DNA of 4,384 nt from a virus (Duplodnaviria; Heunggongvirae; Uroviricota; Caudoviricetes). The notes beneath the pieces were generated by a model. The model saw only the letters and a list, made by a program, of their open reading frames with translations. It made no database searches and was not told where the DNA came from. Of this stretch, positions 1 to 4,384 are shown in pieces. Positions within the stretch are counted from its first letter, which is position 1. Each line of letters begins with the position of its first letter. The stretch is from the IMG/VR virus record IMGVR_UViG_2703718872_000002, one strand, 5' to 3'. The position numbers and the translations under genes were made by a program.

Positions 1-1
1 G

Positions 2-289
2 TATGTTGCCGGGCTACAGGATGTTGCGGCTCTCGGTTCCGGTCAGAAGGCAGATGCGTTACAGAGTTTTAACTCCTTGGCTGACAGCAGTCTGGCAAAA
101 GCCAAATCGGATGCACAGGCGGCGTTTACGAAACAACAGGGGCGAGCTTCTCTTGTTGGCGCTGGTCTGGGAGCTGTAGGTGCGTACGCGATGCATAAGG
201 CTGGCGGTAACGGAGGTGGTGGCGGCGCTAAAACGCCAGGCACCGGCGCTAATGCCATTCAGCATCAGGCTCAGAACTGGAGACTGTAA
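2..289 (+). CDS. hypothetical glycine-rich protein, 5'-truncated by the window edge (C-terminal 95 codons visible)
   Basis: Frame-2 reading frame is open from position 2 to TAA at 287-289. The first start-like codon in the window is TTG at 77, with no Shine-Dalgarno motif upstream, so the true start is probably upstream of the window. C-terminus reads ...ASLVGAGLGAVGAYAMHKAGGNGGGGGAKTPGTGANA..., a small-residue helix plus a polyglycine tract. Stop lies 2 nt before the next ATG. Confidence 0.55.
   Translation, partial: YVAGLQDVAALGSGQKADALQSFNSLADSSLAKAKSDAQAAFTKQQGRASLVGAGLGAVGAYAMHKAGGNGGGGGAKTPGTGANAIQHQAQNWRL
279..282 (+). promoter_or_regulatory. Shine-Dalgarno-like GGAG, 9 nt upstream of the ATG at 292
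   Basis: GGAG at 279-282 inside the 3' end of the upstream ORF; spacing is within the usual range for translational coupling. Confidence 0.4.
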
Positions 290-291
290 TT

Positions 292-738
292 ATGGAGTAT
301 GGCAAATACGAAACTCTCGCAAAGGCTGGTTATTCAGGCGCAGCCCGCCCACAGGGTGACTGGCAGACATCCGCCGCGCTGACACGCCAGCAATACGACG
401 ACTGGCGAACCAGATATTTGCCCCGCGTGGCAAGGCTGGCTGACCTTGGTGAGAACAACAGCCTGATGAATGCACAGCTTGCCCGGGTAGGTGGCCTTGC
501 CACTTCCAGTCTCCGTACAGCGCAGATGGCGCAGGATAACCAGATGGCACGATATGGCGTTAACCGACCTGATAATCCCAACAGTAACACGCTGGGGTTA
601 CGTAATGCCCTGGCAATTGCTGGCGCGAAAAATGGTATCCGTGAAGCAGAGCAGGATCGTCAGATGAACATACTGACGGGGGCTTCTGCACCTGCAAGAC
701 AGCAACTGAGTGTTGGCGGACAACTGGTGTCAGCTTAA
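292..738 (+). CDS. hypothetical protein, 148 aa, hydrophilic and Q/R/N/A-rich, no predicted membrane segment
   Basis: ATG at 292 to TAA at 736-738; starts 2 nt after the upstream stop; GGAG at 279-282. Translation MEYGKYETLAKAGYSGAARPQGDW... has no long hydrophobic stretch and no motif I recognise. Confidence 0.75.
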   Translation: MEYGKYETLAKAGYSGAARPQGDWQTSAALTRQQYDDWRTRYLPRVARLADLGENNSLMNAQLARVGGLATSSLRTAQMAQDNQMARYGVNRPDNPNSNTLGLRNALAIAGAKNGIREAEQDRQMNILTGASAPARQQLSVGGQLVSA

Positions 739-743
739 GGAGG
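737..743 (+). promoter_or_regulatory. strong Shine-Dalgarno AAGGAGG, 4 nt upstream of the ATG at 748
   Basis: AAGGAGG at 737-743 overlaps the TAA stop of the upstream gene; near-consensus ribosome-binding site. Confidence 0.7.
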
Positions 744-747
744 AAAT

Positions 748-999
748 ATGGGATACGGTTTACTGGATATTGCGAATCAGTCACGTCGAGAGGCATTACA
801 GGGAATAAGTGACGCCGACAGGCGACGTGAAGAAATTGAGGCTGCTAACAAGCAGATGGCGGCGCAACAGAAAGCGCAGAACAAGCAGAATATCGGTACG
901 GGCATTGGTACGGGGGCGGCTATGGGCGCTGCCGTTGGTGGTCTCCCCGGTGCGGCTATTGGTGCTGTCATAGGTGGTCTTGCTGGCTCGTTGTTTTAA
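748..999 (+). CDS. small (83 aa) protein with charged N-terminal half and C-terminal glycine-zipper hydrophobic helix; putative membrane-inserting protein
   Basis: ATG at 748 to TAA at 997-999 with a strong SD. N-terminal half is charged (…SRREALQGISDADRRREEIEAANKQMAAQQKAQNKQN…). C-terminal 35 aa (nt 892-996) read IGTGIGTGAAMGAAVGGLPGAAIGAVIGGLAGSLF, a run of G/A at i, i+4 spacing typical of glycine-zipper transmembrane helices. Confidence 0.75.
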   Translation: MGYGLLDIANQSRREALQGISDADRRREEIEAANKQMAAQQKAQNKQNIGTGIGTGAAMGAAVGGLPGAAIGAVIGGLAGSLF

Positions 1000-2272: not shown

Positions 2273-2317
2273 AGTTACGCGGCAGTAACGCACTTCCCGT
2301 TAATCTCGTTCACTTAC

Positions 2318-2344
2318 GCCCGACCATCGCGTCGGGCTTTTTTT
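2318..2344 (+). terminator. Rho-independent (intrinsic) terminator, + strand
   Basis: Perfect 7-bp GC-rich inverted repeat GCCCGAC (2318-2324) / GTCGGGC (2331-2337) around a 6-nt loop (CATCGC), followed directly by TTTTTTT (2338-2344). The reverse complement has no U-tract after the stem, so it is unidirectional. Lies 46 nt after the stop of the 420-aa gene. Confidence 0.7.
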
Positions 2345-2347
2345 ACT

Positions 2348-2351
2348 GGAG
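2348..2351 (+). promoter_or_regulatory. Shine-Dalgarno GGAG, 5 nt upstream of the ATG at 2357
   Basis: GGAG at 2348-2351, immediately after the terminator U-tract. Confidence 0.55.
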
Positions 2352-2356
2352 TCTGT

Positions 2357-4384
2357 ATGGCTTATTCAGATGAACAGCGCCCTGAAGCACAATTGGGTAA
2401 CCGGAACCGCAGTAGCCTGAACATTAAGCAGCCGGGCGAAAATTACTGGCAGGATTTTTTCAACAACCCGGAGAACGCTGTTGATCACAGCACATCGTTC
2501 AGCCTGAGTGATGTATTACCAACGATGGGGAAAGGTGTCGCCCAGTCTGTCCGGGGAACAGGGGAAATGGCCCGTGGACTCGGTGATGCGATGATTCAGA
2601 GTCCTGTAAAAACAGGGGCGCGTATTTTAAATGAGTTCAGCCGTATGGGGCTACCGGGTGTCGCAACTGTTCAGGATATTTTTGCCGGTGGCAGCAAGGG
2701 GGCTGATGAGGTCATCGATACTCTGCCTGATGGCAAGAACGCGGTGACTGATACTGTCGGTAAAGGTCTGAAGGCAACCGGCAAGGCAGTCAGTGATGGC
2801 GCTAAAGTATCGGATGAATGGCTGACCGATAAGATGTCGCCGGGGGCGCAGCGGGCGCTGAATACACCGATGACTGAAGGATATGATGATTCAGCGGTCT
2901 GGGTAGCGAAAGGGGTTAACCTGATTGGTGCGCTTGTACCGGATATGGTTGCAGGCGGTGTGACTAAAAAGCTTGGTGATGTCACTCTGCGAAAAGTGCT
3001 GACCGCCGGGCTGGAGAAAAAATACATCGCGGCAGGGATGCAGCCGGAAAGAGCTACCGCACTGGCAGCAGAAGCTGTCGATAAAAAAATGCCGGATTTA
3101 TTCCAGGCGGGTCTGATCACCCATTCCACAGCCAGCGCACAGGGGCAGAGTGCAATGGTAGCGGCAGATGCTGTTCTTAACGCGGATTACTCTGAGCTGG
3201 CGAAGTCACCGAAATTCCAGCAGACATTTTTGTCAATTGATGCAGATCCGCAGCACGCGCAGCTTACTGACCGCCAGAAAATGGACCTGGCAAAAGAGCG
3301 TGTGGCTGATGAGGTGCGTGCGCAGCTGGCAACCGATCCTCAGTTGCTGGCTGTGAATGCCATGGCGGCAAAACTGGGCGATGCACAGTTGCTTAATCTG
3401 GCGATGCGGGGTACGGCGAAGACCGTTAAGAGCGGCATTATCAGAAACGCCACAGAACAGGGCGTAATTAACGGGGCGCAGGGCGGCTATTCGCGTTACC
3501 AGGAAAATATGGCGTTGCGTGAGACCGCCGGAATGGATGTGTCACCGGGGGAGGGCGTGGCTGACGCAACGATCGAAGGTGCAGCCCTTGGTGCTGCGAT
3601 GGGGGCACCATTCGGTGCGGTTGCCGGATATCGTGGCAGACGTCATGCCGCAGAAGAAACCGCCATGCGTGAGGCTGAAAGCGTTCCTCAGGACGAATCG
3701 GCTCCGCAACCCGAACCGGTTGATCCGGTGGCACAGCATCGTGAATCCATGCAGGGGATGAATCGCGAGCAGCTTCTGGAACAGTATGCTGATGCGGATA
3801 TGGCACATGAGGAAGACACGTCTGCCGTTCATCGCCGGGAAGCCGCCAGCCAGCTGTTGAATGAACTGGATGAACAGGCGAAGCGACAGGCGGTAATGGA
3901 TGAGCTGAAGGCGAAGCCGCGCCCTGAACTGCTTGAGGAATACCGAAAACTCAGCCTGAAGGAAGGGCGTACTGATACTGAAGAGCAGCAGTTACAGGCT
4001 ATCCGTGATGTGCTTCGCCCTCAGCAGGAGGCCAGACCGGAGGCACAGCCACAGCCGGAAAATGCGGATGATGGCGACGGGAGTATTTACCCGACGGTGC
4101 GGTTCCGCGATCCGGATGAAGTTCGTATTGAAATTAACGGGAGTGGTGCGTCCAGACCAGCAGAACGCATTGAAAAGGTGCGTCCGGACAACCGTTATTT
4201 CACGGATGAAAAAAGTGCTCTGGGGAGCGACGTTTTCCGCAATGCCAGCGCCACCGGCCTGAAACCGTCCGTAGTGAAGAAAGGCGAGAATCAGTATGCC
4301 GTTGAAATGGATAATCCTGCGTTCTCTGAAGATGTGGCAACGGAGACCATTAACACTCTGGCTGACGGAGAGCGTATTGCTGAT
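2357..4384 (+). CDS. large hypothetical protein, 3'-truncated by the window edge (>676 aa); contains an internal glycine-zipper segment and acidic Pro/Gln/Glu-rich linker-like segments
   Basis: ATG at 2357 with GGAG 5 nt upstream. I translated frame 2 by hand from 2357 to 4384 (676 codons) and found no stop. It is missing from the ORF track only because it lacks a stop inside the window. Translation begins MAYSDEQRPEAQLGNRNRSSLNIKQPGENYWQDFF… and includes …IEGAALGAAMGAPFGAVAGYRGRR… (about nt 3572-3640). All track ORFs overlapping it are antisense or alternate-frame. Confidence 0.85.
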   Translation, partial: MAYSDEQRPEAQLGNRNRSSLNIKQPGENYWQDFFNNPENAVDHSTSFSLSDVLPTMGKGVAQSVRGTGEMARGLGDAMIQSPVKTGARILNEFSRMGLPGVATVQDIFAGGSKGADEVIDTLPDGKNAVTDTVGKGLKATGKAVSDGAKVSDEWLTDKMSPGAQRALNTPMTEGYDDSAVWVAKGVNLIGALVPDMVAGGVTKKLGDVTLRKVLTAGLEKKYIAAGMQPERATALAAEAVDKKMPDLFQAGLITHSTASAQGQSAMVAADAVLNADYSELAKSPKFQQTFLSIDADPQHAQLTDRQKMDLAKERVADEVRAQLATDPQLLAVNAMAAKLGDAQLLNLAMRGTAKTVKSGIIRNATEQGVINGAQGGYSRYQENMALRETAGMDVSPGEGVADATIEGAALGAAMGAPFGAVAGYRGRRHAAEETAMREAESVPQDESAPQPEPVDPVAQHRESMQGMNREQLLEQYADADMAHEEDTSAVHRREAASQLLNELDEQAKRQAVMDELKAKPRPELLEEYRKLSLKEGRTDTEEQQLQAIRDVLRPQQEARPEAQPQPENADDGDGSIYPTVRFRDPDEVRIEINGSGASRPAERIEKVRPDNRYFTDEKSALGSDVFRNASATGLKPSVVKKGENQYAVEMDNPAFSEDVATETINTLADGERIAD

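Follow-up and report, generated by a model that had tools for sequence, protein, structure and literature searches.

The 4,384-nt stretch of phage DNA analysed here (the window) is wholly occupied by five co-directional ORFs, and the question that it raises is what these genes, g1 to g5, do for the phage that carries them. All features described below lie on the + strand. The ends of the window cut two of the genes: g1 (2..289, defined by its ORF frame and stop codon) is 5'-truncated and represented by the last 95 of its 218 residues, and g5 (2357..4384) is 3'-truncated and represented by the first 676 of its 2792 residues, both full lengths being taken from L001. Between them lie the ORFs called as g2 (292..738, 148 aa), g3 (748..999, 83 aa), and g4 (1010..2272, 420 aa). 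The intergenic gaps across g1-g4 are 2, 9, and 10 nt, exactly as a preliminary description made from the sequence alone had reported, and Shine-Dalgarno motifs (GGAG or TAAGGAG) lie on or adjoin the stop codons of the preceding genes. Separated from g4 by 84 nt, g5 has its own GGAG at 2348-2351. Within this spacer a hairpin scan identified a hairpin (2318-2337) followed by a T run, a feature that spans 2318..2344 in total and consists of a 7-bp G+C-rich stem, a 6-nt loop, and then seven T residues. The predicted fold (dG -14.4 kcal/mol, z -2.8) is kept in ArgO145 and also in phi24B, where an A-U pair of the stem has become G-C by compensatory change, and the hairpin appears terminator-like, resembling an intrinsic terminator.

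The window is 99.9% identical to a prophage of E. coli STEC that belongs to the Sepvirinae, the short-tailed, 933W/phi24B-like phages of the Shiga-toxin type found in E. coli. It is matched at 88-96% identity by 186 Stx-type podophage records (Sepvirinae), and the cassette is present in 425 of 5426 complete E. coli genomes. Relative to phi24B and ArgO145, the dN/dS values of the five genes range from 0.05 to 0.31, and all five are under purifying selection. Because of these values and of the conservation across phage records and E. coli genomes, we regard the ORFs as real genes and not as chance reading frames. Upstream in the prophage are terminase, portal, N4-gp56-like MCP, adaptor, fibre, and nozzle genes. 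The placement of such a module between head and tail-fibre genes in the preliminary description does not hold: the cassette forms the final five genes of the Q-antiterminated late operon, past the tail-fibre, nozzle, and needle genes, and directly beyond it the prophage terminates at attR beside yfdC. The morons lom, YadA/Eib-like, and hok are found just upstream of the cassette. The needle gene of this prophage is truncated by IS1.

The cassette is largely ordinary in that near-identical genes have already been studied in the phages Sp5 (Mondal et al. 2016, PMC5155283) and phi24B (Bubenchikov et al. 2026, preprint, 10.64898/2026.04.10.717836), the reference Stx2 podophages, and the published data largely settle what its proteins are. 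Sp5 ORF76-ORF80 (ECs1238-ECs1242) and phi24B gp51-gp47 have the same order and sizes as g1-g5 and likewise close the late operon, with no biological difference. The five proteins are 77-97% identical in amino acid sequence to gp51-gp47, and the Sp5 genes were equated with g1-g5 by size and order. The orthologs are ORF76/ECs1238 and gp51 for g1 (97% identical to phi24B vb_24B_44), ORF77 and gp50 for g2 (96% identical to phi24B), ORF78 and gp49 for g3, ORF79/ECs1241 and gp48 for g4, and ORF80/ECs1242 and gp47 for g5 (94% identical to gp47).

All five orthologs were found by mass spectrometry in purified phi24B virions, at estimated copies of 19-35 for gp47, 30-55 for gp48, 36-73 for gp50, and 22-41 for gp51, with low counts for gp49, although these preprint values are rough (a factor of 1-3 according to the authors) and about 40% of the particles in the preparation were empty; gp50, the g2 ortholog, was the most abundant non-shell protein (Bubenchikov et al. 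2026). The cryo-EM model of the same phage, which comprises a T=9 shell, portal, two adaptor rings, nozzle, six fibres, and needle, contains none of gp47-gp51, and gp47 is invisible in both cryo-EM and negative stain despite its abundance (Bubenchikov et al. 2026). The g1-g5 products, or their near-identical orthologs, are thus present in mature virions in tens of copies and are not among the resolved shell and tail parts. Of these proteins gp47 alone was proposed as an ejection protein, and gp48, gp50, and gp51 were left 'hypothetical' (Bubenchikov et al. 2026).

Deletions in Sp5 reveal when these proteins are needed. Phages lacking ORF79 (g4) or ORF80 (g5) form no plaques and no lysogens, a defect complemented in trans, and yield non-infectious particles with normal heads and DNase-resistant DNA at the wild-type level; loss of ORF76 (g1) markedly lowers infectivity and lysogenisation, and ORF77 (g2) and ORF78 (g3) are not among the essential genes and are dispensable in the laboratory (Mondal et al. 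2016). That is, g4 and g5 are required for infectious particles and not for head assembly or DNA packaging, and g1 improves infectivity. Immunogold with antibody to the tail fibre (ORF67) failed to mark particles without ORF79 or ORF80, which was read as a tail-assembly defect, and g4 and g5 were called 'tail formation' genes (Mondal et al. 2016). On that reading g4 and g5, and perhaps g1-g3, would be tail-assembly or external tail components and not internal ejected proteins, which would fit both the missing label on particles with packaged DNA and the location of the cassette downstream of the tail genes. We consider it unlikely, as the phi24B structure fills portal, adaptors, nozzle, fibres, and needle without the abundant but unseen gp47 or any other cassette protein, and 20-70 copies of cysteine-free, low-complexity helical proteins plus a 305-kDa protein fit no unassigned tail position. 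The absent fibre label is negative evidence and could also arise if internal proteins are needed to stabilise the portal vertex. We instead favor as the probable explanation that g1-g5 form a single module that encodes the internal virion ('pilot' or ejection) proteins of a short-tailed prophage of the 933W/phi24B type (Sepvirinae). Most likely the five proteins are packed inside the phage head and, as we infer, delivered to the host together with the phage genome. The preliminary description had proposed such a module, and the prophage context, the phi24B virion data, and the Sp5 deletions all lend it support.

The proteins of the cassette share an unusual composition, which had been described as Gly/Ala helices, polyglycine, Q/E/K/R-rich stretches, and acidic P/Q/E linkers, a characterization that is accurate for g1, g3, g4, and g5. 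They had also been called motif-poor; g1, g2, g4, and the in-window part of g5 indeed have no Pfam or NCBIfam match above threshold, but full-length g5 carries four Pfam domains. In g1 (15% Ala, 14% Gly, 10% Gln) there is a GGNGGGGG run, a Gly/Ala-rich weakly hydrophobic segment, SLVGAGLGAVGAYAM (nt 149-193), and a poly-Gly run (nt 203-226). Its PHROG matches are PHROG 611 and, at a weak level, phrog_8003 'virion structural protein', and weak homologs of it occur in GP4 and BcepIL02. Profiles of the g1 and g2 families align over 100 columns (hhalign, Prob 93%, E 3.4e-7), suggesting that g2, with a dN/dS of 0.05, and the helical domain of g1 are probably paralogs, a relationship that is new here.

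In the small protein g3 (19% Ala, 18% Gly) the N-terminal helix is charged, and the C-terminus is a membrane segment of the glycine-zipper kind (nt 904-996, ...GGLPGAAIGAVIGGLAGSLF; hydrophobic residues 53-83). Its orthologs bear the RefSeq name 'bacteriocin', and its ortholog gp49 was set aside as a contaminant of phi24B virions on annotation alone (Bubenchikov et al. 2026). All family matches of g3 are sub-threshold: 28.1 bits for Pfam Gly-zipper_YMGG (cutoff 28.9), 18.2 bits for Pfam Bacteriocin_IIc (cutoff 27.1), and 14.5 bits for NCBIfam microcin E492 (cutoff 50). That the 'bacteriocin' label is unsupported, with every bacteriocin or microcin match below its curated threshold, is new here. 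The label, the glycine zipper with its weak bacteriocin and microcin matches, and the true morons immediately upstream might nevertheless suggest that the cassette is a lysogenic-conversion (moron), bacteriocin-like membrane-toxin, or non-phage membrane module unrelated to the virion. We regard this as highly improbable given that the proteins are present in virions, that two of them are essential for infectivity, and that the corresponding cassettes of Vibrio and Aeromonas phages directly follow the nozzle/needle genes with no intervening morons; the non-phage membrane-active system that the preliminary description had kept as an alternative is excluded.

Related cassettes occur well beyond the Stx phages. 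The order g0-g1-g2-g3-g4-giant, with homology at every position, recurs in Aeromonas phiARM81mr and in Vibrio phages, the same order is found in 26 diverged IMG/VR viral loci (g3 being syntenic in 24 of the 26, with a strongly conserved C-terminal tail), and a modified cassette occurs in Ralstonia GP4 and Burkholderia Bcep22-like phages (BcepIL02). This conservation, seen in sequence comparisons, is new here. In GP4 and Bcep22/BcepIL02/JC1, the C-terminal ~900 aa of the giant are homologous to those of g5 (26-28% identity, E about 1e-66), the giant is immediately preceded by a g4-like protein of 510-530 aa that shares the N-terminal G-x3-G motif, and a weak g1 homolog (E 1e-6 to 1e-8) has a C-terminal Gly zipper, so that the zipper is fused to the g1-like protein and there is no separate g3. 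These proteins are cysteine-free and virion-associated by mass spectrometry; in the distantly related JC1 the virion-associated equivalents are gp64, gp67, gp68, and gp69, whereas the interleaved acetyltransferase and PAPS reductase, whose Cys-containing genes interrupt the cassette in this group, are not. Furthermore, the giants there are 3224-4667 aa long and have other middle domains than g5.

The absence of cysteine is itself characteristic. There are 0 Cys in the 3661 aa of g1-g5 (g1 included, and 0 in the 2792 aa of g5 alone) vs 31 in 4546 aa of other proteins of the same prophage (P about 1e-11). Unlike the cassette, the neighbouring shell, tail, and enzyme genes encode cysteine, and this pattern, which sets the cassette apart from all tail proteins, also argues against the tail-component reading. 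The Aeromonas, Vibrio, GP4, BcepIL02, and IMG/VR cassettes are likewise Cys-free, as are N4 gp50/51/52 and T7 gp15/16, whose ejection is established by experiment. That cysteine absence is common to the cassette and known ejected proteins is new here.

The two essential proteins differ in kind. g4, rich in Ala/Gln/Leu/Glu/Lys, is predicted to be mostly helical and soluble-looking: a scan for hydrophobic segments found none, and its AF2 model (pLDDT 64, medium-low confidence) has a helix of 115 residues (14-128), beta strands at 213-266, and C-terminal helices. Two features are conserved in the family, a G-x3-G-x3-G motif at the N-terminus and a small core of beta structure (aa 204-259, nt 1619-1786), with G7, G11, G204, D241, G242, P248, T250, and D259 nearly invariant. 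This is a small family, with 73 clusters (50% identity) in a set of 1.84 billion proteins, and g4 is the fastest-evolving cassette gene (dN/dS 0.24-0.31). g5 is a 2792-aa, 305-kDa giant polyvalent virion protein. Helices are predicted for most of its in-window part, which carries acidic P/Q/E linkers and a weakly hydrophobic Gly/Ala segment (aa 180-199, nt 2894-2953) and gave a low-confidence single-sequence AF2 model (residues 1-676, pLDDT 47). Outside the window Pfam identifies LPD5 (aa 1050-1199), LPD1 (aa 1360-1439), MuF_C (aa 1749-1838), and LPD38 (aa 2475-2680), and no processing protease (MPTase) domain was detected with Pfam. The C-terminal ~900 aa are homologous to giant virion proteins of Vibrio phages as well as of GP4 and BcepIL02.

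These four domains (with MuF-C/PBECR) are among those that define the class of polyvalent proteins, and g5 is encoded among virion genes, as in that class, for whose members injection as a means of overcoming host defences has been predicted (Iyer, Burroughs, Anand, de Souza, Aravind 2017, PMC5512222). The cassette could then be pure anti-defence cargo, with g5 a DarB-like polyvalent effector, g1-g4 capsid-targeting or packaging helpers like P1 DarA/Hdf/DdrA, and no conduit role; g5 matches a PHROG named 'DarB-like antirestriction', and the homologous giants of GP4 and Bcep22-like phages are annotated DarB-like. We think this improbable, about as much so as a tail role, in that plaques and lysogens on K-12, the phage's own propagation background, absolutely need g4 and g5. 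P1 dar mutants, unlike the g4 and g5 deletions, stay viable on non-restricting hosts. The PHROG match is confined to the LPD38 region, Pfam recognises in g5 neither a methyltransferase nor a helicase domain like those of P1 DarB, and a short-tailed phage requires conduit formers, for which there are no other candidates among the virion proteins. g5 also departs from the polyvalent class in that its N-terminal 676 aa have no assigned domain and in that it is essential for infectivity, which most class members are not.

Known ejection systems resemble the g1-g5 module in organization. Searches uncovered no homology of the cassette to T7, N4, or P22 ejection proteins; g4 in particular has no sequence, profile, or fold similarity to N4 gp51, T7 gp15, or any solved structure. 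Nevertheless, the order small, mid-sized helical, giant and the hydrophobicity pattern match T7 gp14-15-16 and N4 gp52-51-50. N4 and Pseudomonas DEV (gp73-gp72-gp71) are, as here, T=9 podophages with an N4-gp56-type capsid, and the Schitoviridae ejection operon (Lokareddy et al. 2024, PMC11445570), like the cassette, encodes co-transcribed, entirely cysteine-free proteins that end in a virion-packaged, multidomain giant (~3000 aa) best conserved in its C-terminal part. The differences are that no sequence or profile similarity is detectable, that g5 has LPD5, LPD1, MuF-C, and LPD38 instead of an RNA polymerase domain, and that the cassette has two additional upstream proteins (the g1/g2 paralogs) and a dispensable small Gly-zipper protein (g3). 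T7 gp14-gp15-gp16 and P22 gp7-gp20-gp16 are likewise internal virion proteins, with operon order small membrane protein, helical tunnel protein, large protein, and their mutants form filled, non-infectious particles; T7 gp15 and gp16 are Cys-free. However, the cassette is five-membered, its terminal protein is far larger, and no lytic transglycosylase domain was found in it. According to published reviews, gp15-like proteins are assigned by size and synteny and diverge fast, which fits g4 as the fastest-evolving cassette gene.

We therefore propose, by analogy with these systems, how the module may work. The proteins would be co-packaged in the head and, after release of the needle, would leave by way of the portal-tail channel, cysteine-free and either unfolded or extended. 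g4, being mid-sized, helical, without hydrophobic segments, and fast-evolving, may oligomerise into a conduit that spans the periplasm as an extension of the short tail, a counterpart of T7 gp15 and N4 gp51 (DEV gp72). The glycine-zipper helix of g3 and the g1/g2 paralog pair, to which g1 would bring its own Gly/Ala C-terminal segment, could be accessory membrane-active or scaffold-like channel partners; since g3 is dispensable in Sp5, a role as an obligatory outer-membrane pore of the T7 gp14 kind is excluded for it. Finally, g5 would be the equivalent of T7 gp16 or the N4 vRNAP. Two parts of it, the conserved C-terminal ~900 aa and the helical region at the N-terminus, both of which contain a weakly hydrophobic Gly/Ala segment, would serve packaging, ejection, and membrane passage, and its variable middle (LPD5, LPD1, the predicted RNase MuF-C/PBECR, and LPD38) may supply early effectors that counter host defences in the cytoplasm.

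The products orthologous to the five genes of the window, g1 to g5, are virion proteins that probably lie outside the shell and tail, and two of them, g4 and g5, are needed for infectivity and not for packaging. As had been noted from the sequence, five same-strand ORFs fill the 4,384 bases. On the + strand, g1 (2..289) enters from the left edge with the last 95 of its 218 residues, g2 (292..738), g3 (748..999) and g4 (1010..2272) encode 148, 83 and 420 residues, and g5 (2357..4384) leaves at the right edge after the first 676 of 2792 residues. The gaps of 2, 9 and 10 nt were borne out, as were Shine-Dalgarno motifs that overlap or adjoin the stop codon of the preceding gene. 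So was the unusual composition, with stretches rich in Ala, Gly and Gln, a run of glycines, a glycine zipper and a long helix, together with acidic P/Q/E linkers. Because dN/dS relative to the phages phi24B and ArgO145 lies between 0.05 and 0.31 (g1 and g2, 0.05; g3, 0.12; g4, 0.24-0.31; N-terminus of g5, 0.13-0.17), all five are real genes under purifying selection, with g4 the fastest-evolving among them. In the operon a small membrane protein is followed by a mid-sized helical one and then by a large one: g3 carries a Gly-zipper transmembrane segment within its 83 residues, g4, of 420 residues, is helical and lacks a hydrophobic segment, and g5, of 2792 residues, has weakly hydrophobic Gly/Ala segments towards its two termini.

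Between g4 and g5, an 84-nt spacer contains a G+C-rich hairpin with a run of seven T behind it (2318-2344, + strand; -14.4 kcal/mol, z -2.8), which from its sequence is like an intrinsic terminator. It is kept in ArgO145 and in phi24B, where A-U in the stem has been replaced by G-C in a compensatory change. In a lambdoid phage the Q-modified polymerase would read through a terminator ahead of g5, and therefore the element may merely block unmodified transcription from upstream morons, insulating g5 in lysogens, or may alternatively trim the dosage of g5 or determine the ratio of g4 to g5.

With the chromosome of E. coli 2015C-3121 the window shares 99.9% identity, and it is matched in 425 of 5426 complete E. 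coli genomes; it is also 88-96% identical to 186 phage records, nearly all of them Stx-converting short-tailed Sepvirinae phages. The prophage runs from terminase, portal, a scaffold-like gene, an N4-gp56-family capsid protein and cement and adaptor genes through lateral fibre, nozzle, needle and morons (YadA/Eib-like, lom, hok) to g0, a 117-aa gene, then g1-g5 and attR adjoining yfdC. The preliminary description noted that such proteins typically lie between head and tail-fibre genes; the cassette here forms instead the final part of the late operon, past the tail genes. Upstream of the window in 2015C-3121 (14620-19049 of that locus), the central needle gene is cut to 388 of 422 aa beside IS1A, and in place of homologs of phi24B gp54, gp55 and Lom, which it lacks, the locus has a YadA/Eib-like gene and a fragment of hok. 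Because the needle gene is truncated and its apparent counterpart in phage Sp5, ORF71, is essential, this prophage probably cannot produce infectious particles, though g1-g5 are intact. The gene g0 (19185-19538 of the same locus) belongs to a conserved family of 117-133 aa that always precedes the cassette, and it contains cysteines. It was undetected in phi24B virions (Bubenchikov et al. 2026, 10.64898/2026.04.10.717836) and is non-essential in Sp5, where it is ORF75 (Mondal et al. 2016, PMC5155283). In GP4 and Bcep22-like phages its position is taken by an acyl-CoA N-acyltransferase; we rejected the idea that g0 is a degenerate GNAT, suggested by the acetyltransferase in that slot in GP4 and Bcep22, as no pairwise similarity between the two was found.

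Proteomic and genetic evidence comes from orthologs in two phages. First, g1-g5 are 97, 96, 92, 77 and 94% identical to vb_24B_44 to vb_24B_48 of phi24B, respectively, and proteomics combined with cryo-EM of CsCl-purified phi24B virions detected all of the corresponding products, gp47-gp51 (Bubenchikov et al. 2026). Presence in the mature virion is thus established on orthologs of 77-97% identity rather than on this prophage. The estimated copies per virion are about 22-41 for gp51 (g1), 36-73 for gp50 (g2), 30-55 for gp48 (g4) and 19-35 for gp47 (g5; supplementary table), rough values from a preparation in which about 40% of particles were empty. The counts for gp49 (g3) were low, and it was put aside as a contaminant purely on its 'bacteriocin' annotation. 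In the maps gp47, gp48, gp50 and gp51 are unresolved, the g1-g5 orthologs are absent from the cryo-EM model and from negative stain, and no head-internal density has been assigned to gp47-gp51; an ejection role was put forward for gp47 alone (Bubenchikov et al. 2026). In a paper on expression in phi24B lysogens we found no mention of g1-g5.

Second, by size and order g1-g5 correspond to Sp5 ORF76-80 (ECs1238-1242), in a phage across which in-frame deletions have been made (Mondal et al. 2016). Deletion of ORF79 (g4) or ORF80 (g5) abolished plaques and lysogens, each defect being complemented in trans, and left DNase-protected DNA at the wild-type level and heads normal-looking. Thus g4 and g5, through these orthologs, are required for infectivity and not for head assembly or DNA packaging. 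Deletion of ORF76 (g1) markedly lowered infectivity; ORF77 and ORF78 (g2 and g3) are non-essential. Because anti-fibre labelling was undetected on the particles lacking ORF79 or ORF80, the authors named these 'tail formation' genes (Mondal et al. 2016). Given this loss of labelling, g4 and g5 may have a role in tail assembly. The phi24B preprint does not cite the Sp5 deletion study.

The cassette was initially described as motif-poor. This holds for g1, g2 and g4, none of which has a Pfam or NCBIfam match, and fails for full-length g5, in which LPD38 (166.6 bits), LPD5 (154.7), LPD1 (82.5) and MuF_C (63.8) all exceed the Pfam cutoffs of 27-27.6, the four domains lying beyond the window. With at least two defining domains and a virion-gene context, g5 fits the polyvalent-protein class of Iyer et al. 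(2017, PMC5512222), who defined the LPD domains and classed MuF-C as a PBECR, a predicted RNase. That class contradicts the proposal that MuF-C is a peptidoglycan-degrading metallopeptidase (Bubenchikov et al. 2026). No NCBIfam model matched g5 above threshold, CLCA_X reaching 152 bits (cutoff 260) over the LPD5-LPD1 region. Two further identities were discarded. As a P1 DarB antirestriction protein, g5 would carry DNA methyltransferase and DExH helicase domains and protect against type I restriction, and Pfam finds neither domain; its match to a PHROG named 'DarB-like' covers residues 2353-2680 only, the LPD38 region. As an N4-like virion RNA polymerase it would have a single-subunit RNAP catalytic domain; Pfam and NCBIfam show no RNAP domain, and BLASTP against N4 gp50 was non-significant. 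Large protein searches for deeper alignments retrieved nothing beyond near variants from E. coli or Aeromonas, and a query with the N-terminus of the Vibrio giant, the counterpart of g5 in those phages, returned none; residues 1-676 of g5 were therefore folded with AF2 without an alignment, and the model is unusable (pLDDT 47).

The PHROG families of all five proteins are labelled 'unknown function'. Comparison of the g1 and g2 families by hhalign gave Prob 93% and E 3.4e-7 over 100 columns, from small alignments, and the two appear to be paralogs with a common helical domain of ~100 residues. For g3, matches to glycine-zipper, bacteriocin and microcin models are all sub-threshold. Assignment to the bacteriocin/microcin class calls for an above-threshold model, a double-glycine leader and dedicated export and immunity genes. 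A class II bacteriocin or microcin is rejected at Bacteriocin_IIc 18.2 bits (cutoff 27.1) and E492 microcin 14.5 (cutoff 50); the locus has no transporter or immunity gene and the similarity is limited to the glycine zipper. An indispensable outer-membrane pore like T7 gp14 is another identity we set aside for g3, since it conflicts with the dispensability of g3 in Sp5.

The family of g4 is a small one: 73 clusters out of 1.84 billion representatives. A Pfam scan of 51 g4 relatives found no family, and PDB sequence searches with g1, g4, g5 and a 51-member g4 profile gave nothing below E 0.18. The AF2 model of g4 (pLDDT 64, from a 21-row alignment) had no Foldseek match in the PDB at E <= 0.001, TM-scores being about 0.1. 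We rejected a tail tape measure protein, as neither g4 nor 50 relatives matches a TMP family in Pfam and the phage is short-tailed; the names 'tail tape measure' and 'protein phosphatase CheZ' attached to g4 clusters are misannotations. Among Stx phages g4 shows 73-80% amino acid identity in many records where its neighbours show 92-98%, and some records align from residue 83 only. This pattern suggests mosaic exchange or adaptation to the host envelope.

The cassette is conserved well beyond E. coli. Both g1 and g4 match Aeromonas phage phiARM81mr and about 100 Vibrio phages, in which the order g0-g1-g2-g3-g4-giant follows straight after the nozzle and needle genes with pairwise homology at each position. 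A scan of IMG/VR yielded 137 relatives, and order and sizes recur in 26 diverged loci (g4 identity 26-43%), where the tail of g3, ...GGPIGxGIGAAVGLLAGSLF, is strongly conserved. Ralstonia phage GP4 and Burkholderia phage BcepIL02 have giant virion proteins to which g5 is homologous over its C-terminal ~900 aa. Among the genes upstream of these giants are those for a g4-like protein and a weak homolog of g1; the g1-like protein bears a C-terminal Gly zipper, whereas in the prophage studied here the zipper is a separate protein, g3. Bubenchikov et al. (2026) single out GP4 as structurally nearest to the phi24B virion. In the related phage JC1, mass spectrometry showed the cassette counterparts to be virion-associated but not the interleaved acetyltransferase and PAPS reductase.

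The phiARM81mr locus (L004) has a 1.86-kb unannotated stretch (15396-17253) from the g4-like gene to the giant gene, and several IMG/VR loci (e.g. L067, L076) have Cys-containing genes inserted at the same place; given these two observations, the g4-giant junction seems to be an insertion hot spot. Elsewhere in phiARM81mr (4589-6222), a '23S rRNA-intervening sequence protein' gene is followed by a retron-type reverse transcriptase, the pair being flanked by the nozzle gene and a fibre-like virion structural gene. This layout is reminiscent of a diversity-generating retroelement (Avd plus RT) that targets a tail protein.

A further shared property is the absence of cysteine. There is no Cys in the 3661 aa of g1-g5, against 31 in the 4546 aa of the other proteins of the same prophage (P about 1e-11), and the Aeromonas, Vibrio, GP4 and BcepIL02 cassettes are likewise Cys-free. 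The Cys-free stretches are 2-4384 in the window, 12705-26826 in the phiARM81mr locus, 16201-28250 in L005, the cassettes of L008 and L009 and, with few exceptions, the IMG/VR loci in the range L048-L089. The IMG/VR loci contain 13 Cys in 23,244 aa, 9 of the 13 from one mis-called ORF, and their upstream ORFs are 0.78% Cys. All but one of the IMG/VR giants (1351-3025 aa) have no Cys, and, that exception aside, giants reach 2100-4667 aa without one. Cysteines are present in g0, nozzle, portal, adaptors and inserted enzymes, and in neighbouring shell, tail and moron genes too. The Cys-free set is the set detected by mass spectrometry yet unseen by cryo-EM, and the established ejected proteins N4 gp50/51/52 and T7 gp15/16 are Cys-free as well. 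The literature searched does not mention this property of the cassette proteins.

The hydrophobicity pattern of g3-g4-g5 is like that of T7 gp14-15-16 and N4 gp52-51-50, though without detectable homology. BLASTP of g0-g5 against T7 and N4 virion proteins gave nothing below E 0.06, comparison of the g4 profile with N4 gp51 and T7 gp15 by hhalign gave Prob <1%, and no homology was found to T7 gp14/gp15/gp16 or N4 gp52/gp51/gp50. With no match in sequence, profile or fold, the resemblance is one of role, homology being undemonstrated. The presence of the orthologs in virions and the need for g4 and g5 in infection support the internal or ejection-protein-like module that the preliminary description had proposed; ejection itself we infer. 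Under this ejection reading, g1-g5 would be packed in the head and expelled via the tail once the needle is released; g4 would build a conduit spanning the periplasm, g5 would complete the passage into the cytoplasm, its variable middle domains may counter host defences, and g1, g2 and g3 would be accessory. We tentatively put forward, at slightly less than even confidence, a broader proposal: that the cassette is a distinct and widespread genome-delivery apparatus of T=9 'GP4 / Bcep22 / Sepvirinae' podophages, non-homologous to the ejectosomes of T7, P22 and N4, in which the giant is an indispensable component of the DNA conduit and at the same time carries swappable anti-defence domains, and that complete absence of Cys is a general sequence-only marker by which ejected virion proteins can be told apart from proteins of the shell, the tail and morons. 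The parts of such an apparatus would be the paralogs g1 and g2, the Gly-zipper peptide, the helical protein that evolves fast and the polyvalent giant.

Earlier work on Sp5 and phi24B had already described the genes; what is added here is the reading of them as a module, the breadth of their conservation and their Cys-free signature. The broader view of podophages as carriers of ejection proteins is unchanged. Viewing ORF76-80 / gp51-gp47 as one conserved Cys-free internal-protein module reconciles the 2016 genetics ('tail formation') with the 2026 proteomics (a proposed ejection role for gp47) and rescues gp49 from its contaminant or bacteriocin label. The cysteine-free criterion could aid the annotation of those ejection proteins of other podophages that sequence similarity misses. 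Short-tailed Stx phages disseminate Shiga toxin genes within E. coli; g4 together with the termini of g5 offers concrete targets for experiments on Stx-phage infection and host range.
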